A stretch of DNA of 64,000 bases from Acidobacteriota bacterium (GTDB taxonomy: Bacteria > Acidobacteriota > UBA6911 > RPQK01 > JADFOI01), in NCBI GenBank assembly GCA_963663035.1, contig OY760074.1:2080001-2144000 (forward strand), given 5' to 3'. The notes under the pieces were generated by a model. It made no database searches and was not told the origin of the DNA. It saw nothing but the letters and a program-made list of their open reading frames with translations. Positions 322 through 57,626 of the stretch are shown here, piece by piece (positions within the stretch are counted from its first letter, which is position 1; the number at the start of each line of letters is the position of its first letter). Both the position numbers and the translations under genes were made by a program.

Positions 322-397
<76 letters not shown>

Positions 398-4413: not shown

Positions 4414-4490
4414 TGGGGTGGGCGACGGGACTCGAACCCGCGGCCACAGGGGCCACAACCCTGTGCTCTACCTACTGAGCTACGCCCACC
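4414..4490 (-). tRNA. tRNA-His(GTG)
   Basis: Reverse complement GGTGGGCGTAGCTCAG...TTGTGGC...GGTTCGAGTCC...CCCACCCCA; anticodon GTG, G-1 present. Confidence 0.97.
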
Positions 4491-20984: not shown

Positions 20985-23384
20985 TCAGTGCTGGAGAGCC
21001 TTCATGATCTTCTCTGGAGTCATGGGTAAGGAGGTGATTTTGACCTGGAAGGGAGAAAGGGCATCTTCAACTGCATTGGCAATTGCAGCAAGAGAGGTGA
21101 TGCTTCCCCCTTCTCCTACGGCCTTACTGCCGAGTAAGGTAAAGGGGCAGGGAGACTCCATATGCTCGATCTCAAGCCTGGGCAGCCCAAGAAAAGTCGG
21201 CTTCAAGTAGTCCATGAATGTACTGGAGAGGAGTTGCCCATCTTCGGCGTAAACGAAGTCCTCACAGAGCGAAGCTCCTATTCCATGAACTGTGGAACCT
21301 ATCAGCATCCCTTCAACGATCCCGGGGTTGATTTGTCTACCGCAGTCATGAACGATGACATAGCGAAGGAAGTGCACCATCCCCGTCTCCACATCCACTT
21401 CCACAACGACCACGTGCACAGAATTGGAATGTGTGGTTTGGACGTTGAAATCGGTTCTGCTGGGTAGTTTGGTGTATGGGCTCCTATAGTAAGCTATCTC
21501 CTTTAGTCCCGGCTCCAGGTCCTCGGGCAGCAAGAGAATCTGCTTATAGGCTAAAGAAGCGACCTCCTGGAATGAAACAGCCTTTCCCTTTCCCTTACCC
21601 TTCCCCGTACACACCTTTCCTTCCCTCAACTCCAGGTCCGTTTCATCCACTTTCAACATATGGGCGGCGATCTTTCGAATCTTATCTCTGACCTTCTTAG
21701 TCGCCATAATCACTGCACCCAGATCCACGTCGTTGAACTTGTTGGAGTAGACTCCGGAATGGCCAAGGAAGGGAGAGACAAGAGAATCGATCCGGCTCTC
21801 CACCGAAACTCTCTCAAGGGTAATGCCCAGCATATCAGCGACCACTTGAGCAGCAGTCGTCGTATGACCTTGTCCCGAGTCCATAGAACCCAGGAGAACC
21901 TGTACATTTCCGTCAAAATCCATCCCTACAATGGCACCATCAGCGTTCCCCATGTACTCTGGAGTACCCCTGGAGGTGTAGTAATAGCCAAGGTTGGAGG
22001 TGCCCGGTTCGATACCTGCGCTGATCCCTATCCCGATGTACCTTCCCTTCTTTCTTTCCTCTTCCCGCTGCTTCTTCCGCTCTTCATACCCGACCCGTGT
22101 CAGAGCTTTCTTTAGACACTCGGGATAATTGCCGCTCTCATAGATTTCGCCGGACGGGGTTGTGTAGGGCATCTGCTCTGGCTGAACAAAGTTCCTGAAC
22201 CTCACCTCAGAGGGATCCAGGCCGAGTCTCTTAGCGACGATATCCACCATCCTCTCCAATACGAAAATCATGGCCGGCTTCCCAACTCCCCGGTTCTGAA
22301 CTGTGGGACCTTTATTGGTCACCACACTGATCAGCTCGGCCCTGGTGCCCGTAATGTTGTAGCATCCAACCATGGTCGCGAACTTTATGAGCGCATAGAT
22401 GCCTGTGGTGTGGATGAAGGAACCGTCATTCTCTGTGTCCTTCAGGGCAAGACCCAGGATCCTTCCATCCTTTCGCACAGCCAGCTCAATCTCAAGATGG
22501 GCGTCAGGGGCATGAGATCCGGCCGTTAAGTTTGCGGTTCTTGTTTGTATCCACTTGACCGGTTTATCCACTTTCTTGGCGAGAAGAGAAAGTATGACCA
22601 TGTGGGGCCATATCGCCAACTTGAGGCCGAATGAGCCCCCGATGTCGGGAACGATGAGCCTCAACTGGTTAGTGGAAATGCCCAAGCATCGACAGACGTT
22701 GACAATGCTCCTTCCGTGCTGCTGGTCATTGGCCCACACGACGAAAGAGTCGTTTGCCCGTTCATACTCTGCGATGATCGCCCAGGTCTCCAGAGGTGTT
22801 GAACTGTACCTTTGGATTTTGAATGTCTCTTGAACGATGAGATCGGCTTCTTTGTAAGCCTCCTCCAGGCTGCCATGCTCCATCACATCATGGAGCAGGA
22901 CATTGCTCCCAGCTTCCTCAAAGACCAAGGGGGCATCTTCCTTGAGTGCATCCGAGATGTGAACGAGCGGGGTCAGGAGTTCATAATCCACCTTGATGAG
23001 CTCAAGGGCATCCTCGGCGATGTAGGCGTCCTGGGCAACTATGGCGGCGACCGGTTCTCCAACATAGCGGACCTTGTCCACCGCCATTGGGTATTGGATT
23101 GCAGTTTTGGTGATGGCTCTGCCGGGTATCGGCCTGGTCTGCTCAGCTACCTCTTTTCCCGTGATGACGGCCATGACCCCCGGCAGCTTTTCAGCCTCAC
23201 TGGTGTCGATCGCCTGAATTCGAGCGTGGGCCAAAGGACTTCCCAAGACCGCTGCATGGTGGCAATCCATATTCAGATCATCAATGTAGAGGGCCTCCCC
23301 CCGGACCAGCCGACTATCCTCTTTTCTTGGGCTGGGCTTTCCCACCCAATTTCTCGTCACCAGAATGTCCTCCAACTTCATCAT
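20985..23384 (-). CDS. Xanthine dehydrogenase-family molybdenum hydroxylase, large subunit
   Basis: RKED.RLVRG...YIDD, GGSFGLK, NRGVG, GQGH.T, HDCGR.INP, SKAVGEG. Confidence 0.93.
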   Translation of the reverse strand: MMKLEDILVTRNWVGKPSPRKEDSRLVRGEALYIDDLNMDCHHAAVLGSPLAHARIQAIDTSEAEKLPGVMAVITGKEVAEQTRPIPGRAITKTAIQYPMAVDKVRYVGEPVAAIVAQDAYIAEDALELIKVDYELLTPLVHISDALKEDAPLVFEEAGSNVLLHDVMEHGSLEEAYKEADLIVQETFKIQRYSSTPLETWAIIAEYERANDSFVVWANDQQHGRSIVNVCRCLGISTNQLRLIVPDIGGSFGLKLAIWPHMVILSLLAKKVDKPVKWIQTRTANLTAGSHAPDAHLEIELAVRKDGRILGLALKDTENDGSFIHTTGIYALIKFATMVGCYNITGTRAELISVVTNKGPTVQNRGVGKPAMIFVLERMVDIVAKRLGLDPSEVRFRNFVQPEQMPYTTPSGEIYESGNYPECLKKALTRVGYEERKKQREEERKKGRYIGIGISAGIEPGTSNLGYYYTSRGTPEYMGNADGAIVGMDFDGNVQVLLGSMDSGQGHTTTAAQVVADMLGITLERVSVESRIDSLVSPFLGHSGVYSNKFNDVDLGAVIMATKKVRDKIRKIAAHMLKVDETDLELREGKVCTGKGKGKGKAVSFQEVASLAYKQILLLPEDLEPGLKEIAYYRSPYTKLPSRTDFNVQTTHSNSVHVVVVEVDVETGMVHFLRYVIVHDCGRQINPGIVEGMLIGSTVHGIGASLCEDFVYAEDGQLLSSTFMDYLKPTFLGLPRLEIEHMESPCPFTLLGSKAVGEGGSITSLAAIANAVEDALSPFQVKITSLPMTPEKIMKALQH

Positions 23385-23863
23385 GGGTCTTTTCTCTCTA
23401 CTCTCCTGATCCTTTCAGCCGCATACTTCACAGCATCCACAATCTGCTGATAGCCCGTGCACATGCACAGGTTTCCGACCAGCGCCCTTCTGATCTCTTC
23501 CTCATCAGGCTCTGGATTGCCCTGGAGCAAGAAGTAGGAAGTCATAATCATGCCAGGGGTGCAATAGCCACACTGCACAGCAAATCGCTCCCTGAAGGCC
23601 TCTTGCACTGGGTGCAGATCTTCAGCTGCCAGACCTTCTATGGTCGTGATCTCAAAGCCATCCGCACCAACCGCCAGCATCATGCACGACTTGATCGCTC
23701 TCCCCTGGCAGATCACCGTGCAGGCCCCGCAATGTCCGGTGTCGCAGCCTACATGGGTTCCCGTGAGACGGGCCTTTTCTCTGATGTAATGGACAAGCAG
23801 AAGCCGGGCCTCCACATCGTGTTGAAAGTCTTTCCCATTAATTCTCAATTGGATCTCGTGCAT
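23381..23863 (-). CDS. Molybdenum hydroxylase (2Fe-2S) small subunit (CoxS-like)
   Basis: GTHVGCDTGHCGACTV, QCGYCTPG, GNLCMCTGY; start taken at ATG 23863. Confidence 0.93.
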   Translation of the reverse strand: MHEIQLRINGKDFQHDVEARLLLVHYIREKARLTGTHVGCDTGHCGACTVICQGRAIKSCMMLAVGADGFEITTIEGLAAEDLHPVQEAFRERFAVQCGYCTPGMIMTSYFLLQGNPEPDEEEIRRALVGNLCMCTGYQQIVDAVKYAAERIRRVERKDP

Positions 23864-23973
23864 GATGTCCCTGCTAGGTTGATGCCCCGTCGCCACAAGA
23901 TACTCGGAAGCAAATCGACAGTCAACAACCTGACTCACGAGTCTTTTCTATCGACTAAATCGATCAAAAAACC

Positions 23974-24122
23974 GTTTGCACAACCCCTCAACCGGGAGCC
24001 CAAAAACGGTGTTTCAGAAGGGTGTGGAAAAAGCTGTGGATAAGCTGGTGCTCTTTTCTCTGAAAAACATGTCACAGAACTTCCTCACGGAAATCCGAGT
24101 TTTGCACAATAAATGTGCATCA
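23974..24122. promoter_or_regulatory. Cluster of DnaA-box-like sites
   Basis: TGTGGAAAA 24023-31, TGTGGATAA 24035-43 and TTTTGCACA 24100-08 match TTWTNCACA; one-mismatch sites at 23974-82 and 24114-22. Confidence 0.6.
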
Positions 24123-24141
24123 TTTTTTTTATCTTTTTCTC

Positions 24142-24169
24142 TTGTTTCCGGTTCGCAACTGGATAGAAT
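24142..24169 (+). promoter_or_regulatory. sigma70-type promoter for the candidate ncRNA
   Basis: TTGTTT (24142-47), 16 nt, TAGAAT (24164-69), preceded by a T-rich UP-like tract; predicted +1 near 24176 coincides with the start of the closing helix. Confidence 0.65.
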
Positions 24170-24175
24170 TAGAAC

Positions 24176-24614
24176 TGTCCCAAGGGGTAAACGCAATGAG
24201 CCGAAACCCTGAGGCGGCGACCCCGAGTCGGAAAGATCTGCTATCAGGCTTCGGTCGAAGTAGCAGGGAAGCCAGCAAGGGGGGGAAGCCGAAACCTACT
24301 TGCTTCGGTAAGGGGGGGAACGGTTGAACCGGACCGAGAGGAAAACCGGTTTTCTTCGGAAAGCAGGGAGCATACTTCGGGACGGGACGTAGCCGGGAAC
24401 TTCCATTTTGATGGGATTCTCGAAAGAGAAAAGTCAAGGTGGGAAGGGCGGCCCGCTTTCTGGGTTGTCAGTTGCGCTCTTCGGAGTGTAGCCGGCGGTT
24501 TGGGGGTGTGGGTCAACCACTTGAGAAGCTGAGAAACCGATTTTTAACGAGGTCGGGAAAGAGGGCTTCCCAAGCCATCAGATTTGGCTCTCTCTGCGGA
24601 TATCACTTGGGACA
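24176..24614 (+). ncRNA. Candidate large (~440 nt) highly structured non-coding RNA, family unrecognised
   Basis: 5' and 3' ends pair (TGTCCCAAG/CTTGGGACA and further nested helices); five cUUCGg plus GAAA/GAGA loops, all on the + strand; no credible ORF. Confidence 0.75.
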
Positions 24615-24643
24615 TTTATTTATCCTCTCTTTTTCTTTATTAG

Positions 24644-24853
24644 CCCGCATTATCCATAAATTTTCTGCTGCAGTGTCGCAATCATCCACGCTGACGACGT
24701 TGTGCGACCCGCAAAGCGGGTACCCCTTGCGCTCCTCGACGTACTGCAAGAGTACGTCTGCGCGGGGCGCGACCCGCAAGCGGGTACCCCTCACACGCCT
24801 TGTCATCGCGGCGCTTGCACCACTTCGCTAAGAAAACCTATGGGAAATGCGGG
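24644..24853. mobile_element. MITE family A, copy 2 (inverted)
   Basis: TIRs CCCGCATTATCCATA / TATGGGAAATGCGGG; flanks TTAG and CTAG; internal sequence matches copy 1. Confidence 0.9.
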
Positions 24854-25342
24854 CTAGTCCACCTTCTGATAGACGTACCTGAACTCAGGGGATCCGGCTG
24901 GAGCAATGAAGAGCTGGTCTTCCTCCTGGCTAAAGATAAATTCAGAGGTGGTGCCGTCACGGTCGGGGTTCAGTGTGGAAGTCCAGGTCGCTGTCACTAT
25001 CTCTCCCTCAAGGGTAAAGGTTCCGCAGGCAGAGTTGGCAGCAGTGAAGGCTGCAGCTGCCTTTCTCATTGCCTCCTCGTCAGACTCGTCCTGGACGAAG
25101 TTCTCTCGCTCTTTATCGACGCGCAGATGGCACAGAGAGCCATCCTGAACAATCATTAGGCCTTTCTGGGTTGAGCTCGGCCCATTGGGAGAATCCAGGC
25201 GAAGCAGTTGGTAGACCCCATTGTACCGTTCGACACTTGACTCGGCTTGGGGAGTCACTTCGGTGGCGGTGGCGGCTCCTCCGCTGCAAGCCATTACAGC
25301 CATAGCACTGCTGAGAGACAACAAAGCCATCAGGTTCTTCAT
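24854..25342 (-). CDS. Hypothetical lipoprotein (lipocalin-like beta-barrel possible)
   Basis: GAGGAGG RBS and signal peptide with VMAC lipobox. Confidence 0.7.
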   Translation of the reverse strand: MKNLMALLSLSSAMAVMACSGGAATATEVTPQAESSVERYNGVYQLLRLDSPNGPSSTQKGLMIVQDGSLCHLRVDKERENFVQDESDEEAMRKAAAAFTAANSACGTFTLEGEIVTATWTSTLNPDRDGTTSEFIFSQEEDQLFIAPAGSPEFRYVYQKVD

Positions 25343-25430
25343 ACGATCCTCCTCTTGACACTAATCAACATTTTCATGCTATCGTGCGCCAGAGGAGTTT
25401 AAATGGTTGCAGCTTGCAGGTCAACCCTAG

Positions 25431-25621
25431 CCCGAATTATGCATAGGTTTTCGTAGCGAAGTGGCGCAGGCGCCGCAATGACAAGGCGTGTGAGGGGTAC
25501 CCGCTTGCGGGTCGCGCCCCGCAGACGTACTCCTGCAGTACGTCGAGGAGCGCAAGGAAACACAACGCCGACAGAGCGGATGATTGCGACACTGTAGCAG
25601 AAAATTTATGCATAATATGGG
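25431..25621. mobile_element. MITE family A, copy 3
   Basis: TIRs CCCGAATTATGCATA / TATGCATAATATGGG with a CTAG duplication on both sides. Confidence 0.9.
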
Positions 25622-25654
25622 CTAGTAGGTGCAAAAGACTGGAGAGGCAGATAA

Positions 25655-26704
25655 GTGGAAAAGATCCCGGTAGGAATTTTAGGTGCCACTGGGGCGGTAG
25701 GACAGAAGTTCATTCTGCTCTTGACTGATCATCCCTGGTTTGAACTCCGGGAGTTGGCCGCCTCCGAGCAATCATCAGGAAATCGATATCAAGATGTCGT
25801 CTCCTGGAGACAGGCGAGTCCGATTCCGGAAACCATCCGAGAAATGATGGTCAAAGACTGCGAACCGAATCTCGACTGTAAGATTGTTTTTTCTGGTCTG
25901 GATTCCTCAGTGGCCGGAAACATTGAAGAGTCTTTCGCCCAAGCGGGATACTGGGTGTTTTCCAATGCCATGAATCACCGCATGGATCCCGATGTTCCGC
26001 TGGTGATCACGGAGCTCAACCCTGAGCACCTGAACATCATTCCCCACCAGCAGAAGACTCGAGGCTGGGAGGGGGCCATCCTCACCAACGCCAATTGCTC
26101 CGCGATTGTCCTGGCTCTCTCGCTTGGACCACTTCACAAGAGGTTCGGACTGGAGACTGTCCATGCGGTAACTTTCCAAGCGGTCTCGGGTGCCGGCTAT
26201 CCCGGTGTCCCCTCACTGGACATCCTGGGAAACGTCATTCCCTTTATTCCTGGAGAAGAAGAAAAGATGGAAAGTGAGACCCGAAAGATCTTAGGTGTAC
26301 TGGATCAGGATCGGTTTCGTCCGGCCGCTTTCACAGTCAGCACTCATGCGAATCGAGTGCCGGTTGAGGAGGGTCACCTGGAATGTGTTTCGGTCAAGCT
26401 GAAGGAGAAGGCTCCGCTGGAAGAAGTGATTCGATGCTGGCAGGAATTTACTGGACCAGATCATGAATTGAAGCTTCCCTCAGCCCCCCAGCACCCTGTG
26501 GTGGTGGTTTCAGAAGAGGATGGTCCCCAACCTCGCCGAGACGTCTGGAAATACCAGGGGATGAGTGCTCTGATAGGGCGTGTCCGCCCCTGTCCACTTT
26601 TTGACATCAAGTATGTTGTGCTCGGACATAACACCATCCGGGGAGCCGCCGGAGCCTCAGTGCTCAATGCGGAGTTGGTCCTCAAGAAAGGGATGTTGGA
26701 GTAG
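25655..26704 (+). CDS. asd: Aspartate-semialdehyde dehydrogenase (archaeal/fungal-type clade)
   Basis: GILGATGAVGQ, NANC catalytic Cys, QAVSGAGYPGV, HNTIRGAAG. Confidence 0.95.
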   Translation: MEKIPVGILGATGAVGQKFILLLTDHPWFELRELAASEQSSGNRYQDVVSWRQASPIPETIREMMVKDCEPNLDCKIVFSGLDSSVAGNIEESFAQAGYWVFSNAMNHRMDPDVPLVITELNPEHLNIIPHQQKTRGWEGAILTNANCSAIVLALSLGPLHKRFGLETVHAVTFQAVSGAGYPGVPSLDILGNVIPFIPGEEEKMESETRKILGVLDQDRFRPAAFTVSTHANRVPVEEGHLECVSVKLKEKAPLEEVIRCWQEFTGPDHELKLPSAPQHPVVVVSEEDGPQPRRDVWKYQGMSALIGRVRPCPLFDIKYVVLGHNTIRGAAGASVLNAELVLKKGMLE

Positions 26705-26709
26705 GCCCC

Positions 26710-27405
26710 ATGCGAATTACCCTTATAGGCTACGGCAAGATGGGAAGAAAGGTAGAGGAGGTGAGCCGTGACCAAGGCCACGAAGTTGTCCACACGATCG
26801 ATATCGACAACCTTGCCTCTGAAGCCGGATTCTCAGGAGAATGGGTCAAGATGACTGATGTCCTCATCGATTTTTCCACAGCAGCTACCGTGGTGACGAA
26901 TGTCCAGAATGCCGCCCGCGCGAAGATTCCCATAGTGGAAGGGACCACTGGTTGGAATGAACAGTTGAAGAAGGTTCAGCAGATCGTGGAGAGCCAGGGT
27001 GGAACCTGCGTCTATTCCAGCAACTTCAGTATGGGGGTTCAGAGTCTCTTCCACCTGACACGACAGGCTGGGAAGCTGCTTTCTCGTTTTGAAGATTTCC
27101 ATCCCTTTATCGTGGAATCTCATCACACTCAGAAGATCGATGCACCCTCGGGCACGGCACTGACATTGCGCAAAATTCTCGAGGAATCGTACAGCTCAGA
27201 GGTACCCACTTCGAGCCTGCGGGTTGGTTTTATCCCCGGAAACCACCTTGTGGGCTTTGACTCTCCCTTTGATACTCTGACGCTGGAGCACAGGGCGCGA
27301 AGCCGGGAGGGCTTTGCTAGAGGAGCGCTCTTTGCTGCCCAGTGGGTCCAGGGTAAAACAGGCTTGTATCGCTTCGAAGACGTCCTTTTCGGTGAAGAAA
27401 CATGA
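26710..27405 (+). CDS. dapB: 4-hydroxy-tetrahydrodipicolinate reductase
   Basis: GYGKMG, EGTTG, SNFSMG, ESHH.QK.DAPSGTA, FARGA. Confidence 0.95.
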   Translation: MRITLIGYGKMGRKVEEVSRDQGHEVVHTIDIDNLASEAGFSGEWVKMTDVLIDFSTAATVVTNVQNAARAKIPIVEGTTGWNEQLKKVQQIVESQGGTCVYSSNFSMGVQSLFHLTRQAGKLLSRFEDFHPFIVESHHTQKIDAPSGTALTLRKILEESYSSEVPTSSLRVGFIPGNHLVGFDSPFDTLTLEHRARSREGFARGALFAAQWVQGKTGLYRFEDVLFGEET

Positions 27406-28295
27406 TCAATACAACCGGTTGTGGCACAGCTTTAGTGACCCCTTTTCAATCCAATAACGAGGTCGACCTGGAAACCTATCGGAAACTGGTCCGGTGGCAG
27501 ATCGATTCGGGGATCAACTTCCTGGTTCCCGTGGGAACTACCGGGGAGAGCGTCACCCTCAGTGAAGAGGAATACCGGGATGTGATTCGAACCTGTGTGG
27601 AAACAGTGGCAGGCAAAGTTCCAGTCGTGGCAGGTGCTGGCACCAACAACACGGCCCATGCGATCCACCTGGCTGGCATCGCCCAGGAGCAGGGGGCCGA
27701 CGCTCTGCTTGCAGTAACTCCCTACTACAACAAACCCACCCAGGAAGGTCTTCTTCGTCACTTCCAGAAGATTGCCGAGTCAATCGAAATTCCGGTCATT
27801 CTCTACAACGTTCCAGGGCGCACCGTGACCAATATCACGGTAGAAACTGCGCTTCGGTTGGCACAGATCGATAATATTATCGGCATCAAAGAAGCCAGTG
27901 GAGATCTCAGTCAAGTTATGCAGATTCTGGATCACCGTCCTCCAGGATTCCTGGTTCTGTCGGGAGACGACAGTCTCGCCCTGGCCATTACACTGTTGGG
28001 TGGGGAGGGCATCATTTCAGTGGCCAGCAATTTGATTCCTGCCGAAATGACTCGAATCATCGATCTGGCCCGCCGTGAAGAGTTGGAGGAGGCTCGGAAA
28101 CTTCATTATCACTACCTCTCCTTAATGGAACTCAACTTCATTGAAACGAGCCCTATCCCTGTGAAATATGCGCTTTCCCGCATGGGCAAGCTTGAAGAGG
28201 TCTACCGGCTCCCCCTGTGTCCGCTCAGCGAAGCGAGTAAAGGAAGGATGGATCAAGAGCTGCAGAAGCTCAACCTGGTGAGTCCCCGTGGTTGA
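27402..28295 (+). CDS. dapA: 4-hydroxy-tetrahydrodipicolinate synthase
   Basis: ALVTPF, GTTGES, PYYNKP, YNVPGRT, GIKEASG. Confidence 0.96.
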   Translation: MINTTGCGTALVTPFQSNNEVDLETYRKLVRWQIDSGINFLVPVGTTGESVTLSEEEYRDVIRTCVETVAGKVPVVAGAGTNNTAHAIHLAGIAQEQGADALLAVTPYYNKPTQEGLLRHFQKIAESIEIPVILYNVPGRTVTNITVETALRLAQIDNIIGIKEASGDLSQVMQILDHRPPGFLVLSGDDSLALAITLLGGEGIISVASNLIPAEMTRIIDLARREELEEARKLHYHYLSLMELNFIETSPIPVKYALSRMGKLEEVYRLPLCPLSEASKGRMDQELQKLNLVSPRG

Positions 28296-32636: not shown

Positions 32637-32709
<73 letters not shown>

Positions 32710-57554: not shown

Positions 57555-57626
57555 GCCGGCGTAGCTCAACGGTAGAGCGACGCATTCGTAATGCGTAGGT
57601 TAGGGGTTCAATTCCCTTCGCCGGCT
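57555..57626 (+). tRNA. tRNA-Thr(CGT), CCA not encoded
   Basis: GCCGGCGTAGCTCAACGGTAGAGC...TTCGTAA...GGTTCAATTCC...CGCCGGCT. Confidence 0.95.

Follow-up and report, generated by a model that had tools for sequence, protein, structure and literature searches.

What kind of element lies at positions 24176-24614 of the DNA studied here, and does it act on its own account or on behalf of the genes that follow it? The DNA, referred to below as the window, is a stretch of 64,000 nucleotides (nt) on contig OY760074.1 (assembly GCA_963663035.1), part of the one-contig, 3.59-Mb genome of an Acidobacteriota bacterium (GTDB lineage Acidobacteriota; UBA6911; RPQK01; JADFOI01). The original prediction placed in this block a stand-alone, possibly undescribed, large structured non-coding RNA, and both coordinates and sequence match what we find in the window. 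Our analysis supports that interpretation. The block specifies an RNA that is conserved, structured and non-coding, is present in a single copy in this genome, is represented in RNA libraries and is absent from Rfam. We favour, with a probability of roughly 0.58, the reading that it is a stable RNA of a new class, one that stands alone as its own transcription unit and acts in trans. The coordinates of all features are collected in Table 1.

Consensus structure and distribution of the RNA

The structure was derived from 15 copies of the window's own family, for which RNAalifold returned a consensus of 125 pairs in 20 helices. Pairing is kept in 95.0% of 1859 cells, a share that drops to 35.5-53.6% once the partners are offset by 1-3 columns, and 47 of the 125 pairs have changed on both sides, as against 11-16 with the offset. 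None of five measures was reached by any of 500 shuffles. The original prediction had named covariation among homologs as a test that could overturn it; with 47 of 125 pairs changed on both sides, the covariation is strong. The + strand of 24176-24614 folds at -193.3 kcal/mol (z = -5.26, equalled by none of 100 shuffles) and its reverse complement reaches a z of -2.13.

The block had also been called free of open reading frames (ORFs). Taken literally this does not stand, as mechanical ORFs of 70-130 amino acids (aa) overlap it; what does stand is that no frame remains open across the 15 homologs. Most of the gap runs in their alignment (202 of 218) are not multiples of three.

The proposed helices fared unequally in the consensus. 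The outer nested helices TGTCCCAAG/CTTGGGACA and GAGCCG../..GGCTC recur as consensus helices 1 and 2, and TTCTC-GAAA-GAGAA is helix 15 (24417-24430). The pairing of CTGAGGC with GCCATCAG is possible in 85.7% of cells, in columns too invariant for covariation to bear on it. That of GGGAAGCC at 24266 with GGCTTCCC finds no support (70% paired, equal to shuffles); its alternative, from 24283 with the same partner, is paired in 85% of cells and competes with the better-supported helix 19, which is paired in 97% and has five pairs changed on both sides. The suggested CC-GAGA-GG hairpin is absent from the consensus and its 5' side forms part of helix 11. The 5' hairpin domain consists of helices 4-9, with a UUCG loop at 24250, and the junction CCCTGAGGCGGCGACC is conserved throughout the order. 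The central hairpin region varies in length and sequence from family to family, and helices 12, 14, 16 and 17 each have 4-7 pairs that changed on both sides.

All five predicted CTTCGG motifs are present on the + strand, starting at 24249, 24303, 24354, 24375 and 24479. In the whole window, counting both strands, this 6-mer occurs 42 times (45.2 expected). About 0.14 copies are expected by chance in 439 nt of one strand (the original prediction gave about 0.1 for a given 6-mer), so that the five copies form a genuine local cluster in a window where the motif is otherwise at chance frequency. Four of them cap stems, as had been proposed, namely consensus helices 9, 10, 12 and 18; the fifth, at 24375, sits within a helix strand and is not kept in relatives.

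In 20 sequences that represent the order, helix 1 (the closing stem) is paired in 99% of cells. Its six central outer pairs are identical in all 20 and its two terminal pairs in 19, the exception being one G-U at each of these two, and its inner pairs covary (for example C-G to U-A, G-C to A-U and A-U to G-C). Throughout the order the RNAs further share a junction of the form CCC(Y)GRRG...GCG(R)CC and the motif AGAAACC-hairpin-GG(A)GAG, and the remaining interior is lineage-specific.

BLAST and profile searches agree on one copy in the window's genome. Full-length homologs were found by BLAST in all 14 other genomes of the same family (65-89% identity), and in other families the BLAST match is limited to the first ~50 nt. 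What these families share is a design: a T-rich tract, CTTG, a TAnAAT- or TATACT-type -10 box, ~6 nt later the 5' arm GTCCCAAGGGGT(A/G)(A/G)A, a variable interior, the 3' arm ...ATATCACTTGGGAC and a T-run. Genome collections yielded 48 complete distinct members of 242-695 nt, the shortest of which rests on the unpublished genome G017, as do the smallest distance to asd (48 nt) and one RNA-asd-ask case among the three mentioned below. Another 22 complete members of 342-704 nt came from metagenome contigs.

Class-wide BLAST is an insensitive guide to this RNA, finding it in 24 of the 76 genomes of the order, as against 38 with an exact 16-mer, whose reversed control pattern occurred once, and 62 with a profile of the 55-nt 5' segment. 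In 61 members of the class outside the order the profile gave one weak partial match. On inspection, all nine sampled new loci within the order showed the whole architecture and the outside match showed none of it. A phylum-wide sample gave a similar picture, with the exact signature in 16 of 27 order members and in one of 374 others, the latter being a chance match.

In a scan of one genome per prokaryote species, 39 matches were obtained, 30 in records titled Acidobacteriota or Acidobacteria and one in an 'uncultured bacterium'; the eight in other taxa lack both the 3' arm and the promoter. The matches include two paralogs with a variant 3' arm and two copies cut at the end of the available sequence. 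The 31 records titled Acidobacteriota, Acidobacteria or 'uncultured bacterium' are all metagenome-assembled or single-cell genomes. A metagenome scan returned 88 matches, and the 80 loci examined comprise 22 complete copies, 21 cut by contig ends and 37 bare pattern matches. Complete copies were seen only in records titled Acidobacteriota or Acidobacteria and in the one 'uncultured bacterium'.

Across the order there are one or two copies of the RNA per genome. In some genomes of the window's genus the second copy is a ~345-nt paralog (L068:1500-1841; L084, from ~3018) that keeps the 5' arm and has a slightly altered 3' arm; it is absent from the window's genome. Genomes of another genus (g25) hold two full-size copies, only one of which adjoins asd.

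Promoter, ends and RNA-library contigs

That the RNA has its own promoter, with a TAGAAT -10 box, was part of the original prediction. The box lies at 24164-24169, with 24176 as the seventh base after it, and the promoter elements keep a constant spacing in members of all families examined: CTTG is followed at a constant distance by TAGAAT, TATAAT, TAAAAT or TATACT in members of every family shown. A simple scan does not list it because the -35 element matches the consensus of the scan at only 3 of 6 bases. Transcription probably starts at ~24174-24177, about 7 nt past TAGAAT, and the T-rich tract at 24120-24141 may act as an UP element.

The dyad at 24103-24119 is probably a regulator-binding site or a hairpin. 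By a strict pattern, 30 of 49 true members, and none of nine chance loci, have a dyad of this type between positions -64 and -76 relative to the 5' arm, and its spacing relative to the RNA is fixed even between distant lineages. Together, the conserved dyad and T-rich tract suggest that transcription of the RNA is regulated. The palindrome is one that we take to be similar to dyads bound by NtrC-type regulators. A search for a wider regulon found six copies of TGCAC-N7-GTGCA in the genome (~3.9 expected) and two of the strict form; the dyad is not enriched, and no regulon emerges.

At the other end, the T-rich tract that had been noted after the block is present at 24615-24637. A T-run directly follows the 3' arm in all members listed, which were chosen by their arms alone. 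Closing stem and T-run probably terminate transcription, in a geometry that is atypical for a terminator, as the stem closes ~420 nt; it is missing from the output of the simple scan.

Logan contigs of four RNA libraries, each from a separate study and labelled as sponge metagenome, marine sediment metagenome, sediment metagenome and a coded organism, were placed on 23950-25750. They cover the block from 24192 or 24194 to 24611 or 24612 with 0-3 differences; a 447-nt contig, for example, extends over 24194-24611, and two contigs jointly span 24192-24612. Many complementary DNA fragments appear to end at these points, since adapter-like loose ends abut 24192 and 24198 before the block and 24611 and 24612 behind it. 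The predicted + strand transcript is borne out as far as coverage goes, which is almost end to end; the strand does not come from the contigs and is assigned because G-U pairs are frequent, the two strands differ in fold z-score, and promoter and T-run are always oriented alike. Coverage of the flanks (23950-24132 uncovered; 24621-25657 at depths of 0-38) was not used as evidence, since neither gaps nor depths of contigs prove anything. In one RNA-library contig the apparent 3' arm of another copy, followed by AAA, is joined to 24193; this junction, known from that single contig, could stem from a template switch where RNAs end, or from an RNA that is permuted or circular.

The features expected of a stand-alone non-coding RNA are found in the block: a promoter, a defined end, a covarying structure, no coding frame and presence in RNA libraries. 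Its exact ends and strand we infer.

Table 1. Features of the RNA locus and of its surroundings (window positions).
Feature	Position	Strand	Remarks
RNA gene	24176..24614	+	~439 nt, 20 consensus helices; fold z, covariation, RNA-library contigs
Dyad TGCACA-N5-TGTGCA (palindrome TGCACAATAAATGTGCA, then T-run)	24103..24119	+	Also listed as a hairpin by a simple scan
T-rich tract upstream of -35, UP-element-like	24120..24141	+	T-run ahead of CTTG in nearly all members shown
Promoter	24142..24169	+	-35-like TTGTTT 24142-24147, spacer 16 nt, -10 TAGAAT 24164-24169
Helix 1 (closing stem), 5' strand GTCCCAAG-G-GGTA-AA-CGC	24177..24194	+	Pairs with 24596-24613
5' strands of helices 2 and 3 (24198-24203, 24208-24211), junction CCCTGAGGCGGCGACC, 5' hairpin domain	24198..24296	+
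Central hairpins, helices 10-18	24299..24518	+	UUCG loops 24304, 24355, 24480; GAAA loop 24422
Helix 19 (24520-24528 with 24566-24574), enclosing AGAAACC, helix 20 (24537-24556) and GGGAAAGAG	24520..24574	+
3' strands of helices 3, 2 and 1, ending GCGGATATCACTTGGGAC	24579..24613	+
T-rich tract immediately 3' of closing stem	24615..24637	+	Intrinsic-terminator-like end with that stem
asd promoter-like block TTGACA ... extended -10-like TGCTATCGT	25354..25390	+	Outside the RNA
asd (aspartate-semialdehyde dehydrogenase), then dapB, dapA	25655..26704 (asd)	+	Pfam Semialdhyde_dh, Semialdhyde_dhC
asd-dapB-dapA	25655-28295	+	Downstream neighbours
Xanthine-dehydrogenase or CO-dehydrogenase-type molybdopterin subunit and 2Fe-2S subunit	20985-23938	-	Downstream of a TRAP-type (tripartite ATP-independent periplasmic) transporter
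tRNA gene	325-397	-	The four tRNA genes are the sole window matches to Rfam at gathering score
tRNA gene	4417-4489	-
tRNA gene	32637-32709	+
tRNA gene	57555-57626	+

Gene neighbourhood and competing readings

The position of the RNA upstream of asd or aspartate kinase (ask) is conserved, a feature that the original prediction missed and that raises a cis-regulatory rival. In this alternative, the block is a cis-acting leader, that is, a very large riboswitch or attenuator in which a ligand, a protein or a tRNA decides whether the closing stem forms; with the stem, transcription would stop at the U-run, and without it, it would read through into asd-ask or whichever gene follows. We consider this unlikely, although it is the main rival.

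A number of observations count against the stand-alone reading, several of them in favour of the leader. For 44 members the downstream flank extends over 700 nt or more, and 35 of them are followed by a gene on the same strand (16 asd, 9 aspartate kinase, 7 ThuA-like and 3 thioredoxin/NHL) and nine by none of the five query genes; asd is the same-strand downstream gene in 16 of the 48 distinct members. RNA and gene lie 48-462 nt apart; in the window the distance is 1042 nt. The genes for asd and aspartate kinase, which belong to two steps of a single pathway, make up 25 of the 35 same-strand neighbours, a leader-like pattern. A terminator-like end directly before a gene is the usual expression platform of a riboswitch, and members examined have just that, a T-run right after the closing stem. 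The conserved junctions could serve as a binding pocket. An alternative fold is possible as well: in 96.7% of cells the 3' strand of helix 19 and the 3' arm are complementary, a figure that speaks for compatibility and not for covariation because one of the two strands never varies. From another side, 14 of the 76 order genomes, some of them incomplete, have no profile match. The RNA-library contigs carry no strand, ends or level, and as DNA can occur in RNA libraries they leave transcription unproven. No placed contig covers the invariant 5' arm at 24176-24191, so that the mature RNA may lack that segment; a processed 5' end, a stop of reverse transcription or a break of the assembly graph in an ultra-conserved segment are possible causes. 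Extreme 5' ends can also be lost in second-strand synthesis, which would leave the same gap.

Several lines of evidence speak against a leader. Between T-run and asd, a conserved TTGACA ... TGCTATGGT block is found in the window and in nine relatives of its family (f1), so that asd appears to have a putative promoter of its own, where a leader would have none between itself and its gene. There are one or two copies of the RNA per genome and not one ahead of each of several pathway genes. The associations with asd and with ask are probably one inherited arrangement, because the order RNA-asd-ask is seen in three lineages (L069, L079 and L108). Downstream genes differ among lineages, some being unrelated, and four lineages (the window, L014, L066 and L070) have a convergent gene next to the RNA. 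The length of the RNA varies from 242 to 704 nt, and no riboswitch model of Rfam, the lysine riboswitch included, matches it. Fold switching would not alter termination either, because both folds place the 3' arm in a helix before the U-run.

A second alternative is that the RNA works without protein, as a ribozyme or a self-assembling multimer. It is large and has many conserved helices, UUCG and GNRA loops and conserved junction sequences. Passages of two reports lend this some weight: GOLLD, ROOL and OLE RNAs form homo-oligomers (PMC12286853), and most large conserved bacterial non-coding RNAs have been argued to be ribozymes (PMC10861870). Sequence conservation across the order is, however, limited to the closing stem and two short elements, which is less than a shared catalytic core would lead one to expect, and we judge this alternative distinctly improbable.

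Known families were examined with the covariance models of Rfam 15 (4227 families). No match covers the block at gathering score, and the window as a whole gives only the four tRNAs, all of them elsewhere. At E <= 10, cmscan of 24000-24800 produced four chance-level matches of 15-19 bits, against cut-offs of 35-87, and seven diverse relatives had no Rfam match at E <= 1. A significant Rfam match was among the results that the original prediction had listed against itself, and finding none supports an unlisted family. Its remark that the block bears no signature of RNase P RNA, transfer-messenger RNA (tmRNA), signal recognition particle (SRP) RNA or 6S RNA was likewise confirmed by the model searches. 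That the block is a divergent copy of one of these housekeeping RNAs or of a Y RNA, as its size, its paired ends and the lack of a 6S match in this genome might recall, can be dismissed as very nearly excluded, with genuine genes for RNase P RNA (RF00010; C1:1495289-1495672, 322.8 bits), tmRNA (RF00023; C1:2434497-2434857, 187.9 bits) and SRP RNA (RF00169; C1:920979-921077, 68.4 bits) elsewhere in the genome, no match of the first two at the block, 6S RNA in 58 of the 76 order genomes, no TROVE gene and no Rfam match.

The 6S RNA model (RF00013) matches neither in 24000-24800 nor anywhere else in this genome, which raised the idea of a 6S substitute. Canonical 6S RNA co-occurs with the new RNA in many relatives (for example G009, G012, G013, G014, G023, G029 and G030), and because so many 6S-bearing genomes of the order also carry it, the RNA is not such a substitute. 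Within the window's own genus (g1), RF00013 matches in none of seven genomes, as against the 58 of 76 in the order; the genus has either a divergent 6S RNA or lost it.

Other candidates were rejected one after another. A Y-RNA-like particle was considered for the likeness of the closing stem to a Ro-binding stem, and the TROVE domain (PF05731) has no match in this genome, which is a single contig and 96.6% complete; as a control, the same domain was recovered in Deinococcus radiodurans and Bacteroides thetaiotaomicron. For a mimic of a 23S rRNA segment, none of the exact 10-mer matches in the genome falls inside the 23S gene (C1:1225661-1228634). The asd RNA motif (RF01732) gives no match at E <= 10 and shares with the block only the position upstream of asd. 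An 18.9-bit match to CRISPR-DR31 (clustered regularly interspaced short palindromic repeats) at 24675-24709 falls in a dispersed repeat, and there is no array. A miniature inverted-repeat transposable element (MITE) with terminal inverted repeats would fit neither the single copy in the genome nor the conserved gene order and strong covariation.

Returning to the stand-alone, trans-acting RNA that we favour, we propose the following mechanism. Transcription would begin ~7 nt after TAGAAT, from a promoter whose T-rich tract and dyad suggest that it is regulated. The first and last 18 nt would pair as the closing stem, and this stem with the U-run most likely both terminates transcription and shields the RNA ends, giving a stable RNA. 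The 5'-proximal conserved junction and the 3'-proximal AGAAACC-hairpin element would make up a common core; the hairpins between the core elements are lineage-specific expansions, which gives total lengths of 242 to 704 nt. The outer closing stem is invariant although pairing alone would allow change, and this suggests a partner, most likely a protein, that recognises its sequence. The RNA would then act in trans, as a ribonucleoprotein scaffold or a regulator and not as the leader of the downstream gene, and its position upstream of asd-ask would be one inherited gene order.

In the window, an insertion of ~1 kb separates the RNA from asd, which also speaks against a leader. It is made up of a dispersed repeat, present twice in inverted orientation, and a 162-aa gene on the opposite strand. 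The repeat is ~220 nt long (24638-24857 and 25427-25627), has internal hairpins and terminal inverted repeats of its own (24641-24666/24831-24856) and looks like a MITE or a repetitive extragenic palindromic (REP) element; an 11-mer of it has ~35 exact copies in the genome. Its two copies flank the 162-aa gene and the asd promoter block. The repeat holds CCCAAGGGGTA (for example at 24718-24728, - strand), which is identical to the core of the invariant 5' arm (24179-24189). The rough post-hoc chance of such sharing is ~3e-4, and it may be a coincidence or point to a common reading factor. The 162-aa ORF (24854-25342, - strand), which runs convergently to the RNA, has a ribosome-binding site, GGAGG. 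It has a weak match to Lipocalin_5 (E = 9e-4, below cut-off), and a homolog that is 56% identical occupies the same position in L014, in a genome of another genus.

Relation to known RNAs and biological meaning

The nearest precedents appear to be the raiA and asd motifs, which are associated with genes and probably not leaders, and, in scale, OLE, ROOL and GOLLD. Like the new RNA, the raiA motif (ModT; Bacillota and Actinomycetota) is structured and associated with genes in varying contexts, and the motif occurs as a single copy per chromosome (PMC10861870). It takes its name from the gene that it mostly precedes, with 66% of raiA motif RNAs upstream of raiA, and the motif was judged to be a stand-alone non-coding RNA rather than a cis-regulator (PMC10861870). 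In the same report, raiA RNAs are usually without a terminator-type platform and often opposite to the neighbouring gene (PMC10861870), whereas the new RNA has a stem with a U-run and is mostly co-oriented. The two RNAs match in neither sequence nor structure, and the new RNA is larger (242-704 nt) and belongs to a different phylum.

The asd RNA motif (RF01732) is likewise a structured RNA upstream of asd, but its model does not match the block at E <= 10 and it comes from a different phylum. It is also much smaller. The Lactobacillales asd motif is treated as a real RNA whose cis-regulatory status is entered as '?' in Table 1 of PMC2864571.

With OLE, ROOL and GOLLD the new RNA shares a comparable size, many conserved helices and a function that is at most partly known, these being large bacterial non-coding RNAs. 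It differs from them in giving no Rfam match, in its taxa and in combining an invariant terminator-like closing stem with a very variable interior. Rfam 15 includes models for all three. The Y RNAs bound by Ro/Rsr resemble the new RNA in that their 5' and 3' ends pair in a sequence-conserved stem followed by a U-run, and this end stem is a protein-binding site. Unlike in Y RNA systems, there is no TROVE-domain gene here and no match to an Rfam Y RNA, and the new RNA is several times larger. Riboswitches of lysC, asd and dapA, such as the lysine riboswitch, also lie upstream of aspartate-pathway genes and have a terminator-like 3' end. In contrast to these, the new RNA matches no such model, has a strong promoter of its own with a second, putative promoter for asd, is present in one or two copies per genome and has a terminator stem that closes a whole 420-nt fold.

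Since it belongs to none of the families tested, we rate the RNA as a new class, 'new' meaning that Rfam 15 has no match and the full-text searches found no description, and sources beyond those searched may describe it. We found no description of it in the open full-text literature, a search to which supplements and subscription journals were outside scope, and two systematic RNA-discovery papers found in that search contain no occurrence of 'Acidobacteria'. The RNA would be missed in work on cultured strains, because all genomes of its order known here are metagenome-assembled or come from single cells.

Bacterial RNAs that are large and highly structured but have no known job are rare, and past cases proved to be ribozymes, cores of ribonucleoproteins or particles that assemble themselves. 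The present RNA is well defined by sequence alone, with a promoter, a predicted terminator, 20 covarying helices and an order-wide invariant stem that resembles a docking site. Its natural size variants, from 242 to ~700 nt, mark the dispensable parts, and the short ones are ready constructs for work on structure and ligands. The pattern of presence within the order, 62 genomes with and 14 without a profile match, could be used for phylogenetic profiling of partner proteins; the complete genomes that lack the RNA belong to families f12, f15 and f5 and to genus g23. More tentatively, and at somewhat less than even odds, we posit that the RNA is either a ribozyme or the RNA part of a ribonucleoprotein yet to be discovered, carried by nearly all members of one uncultured order and made from a strong, regulated promoter; its invariant stem would be the docking site of a dedicated protein, and its position at asd-ask would reflect a functional tie to the metabolism of aspartate-family amino acids or cell-wall precursors. 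If this is true, the order would possess a new lineage-specific RNA of the housekeeping type, in the sense of 6S RNA, OLE or raiA.

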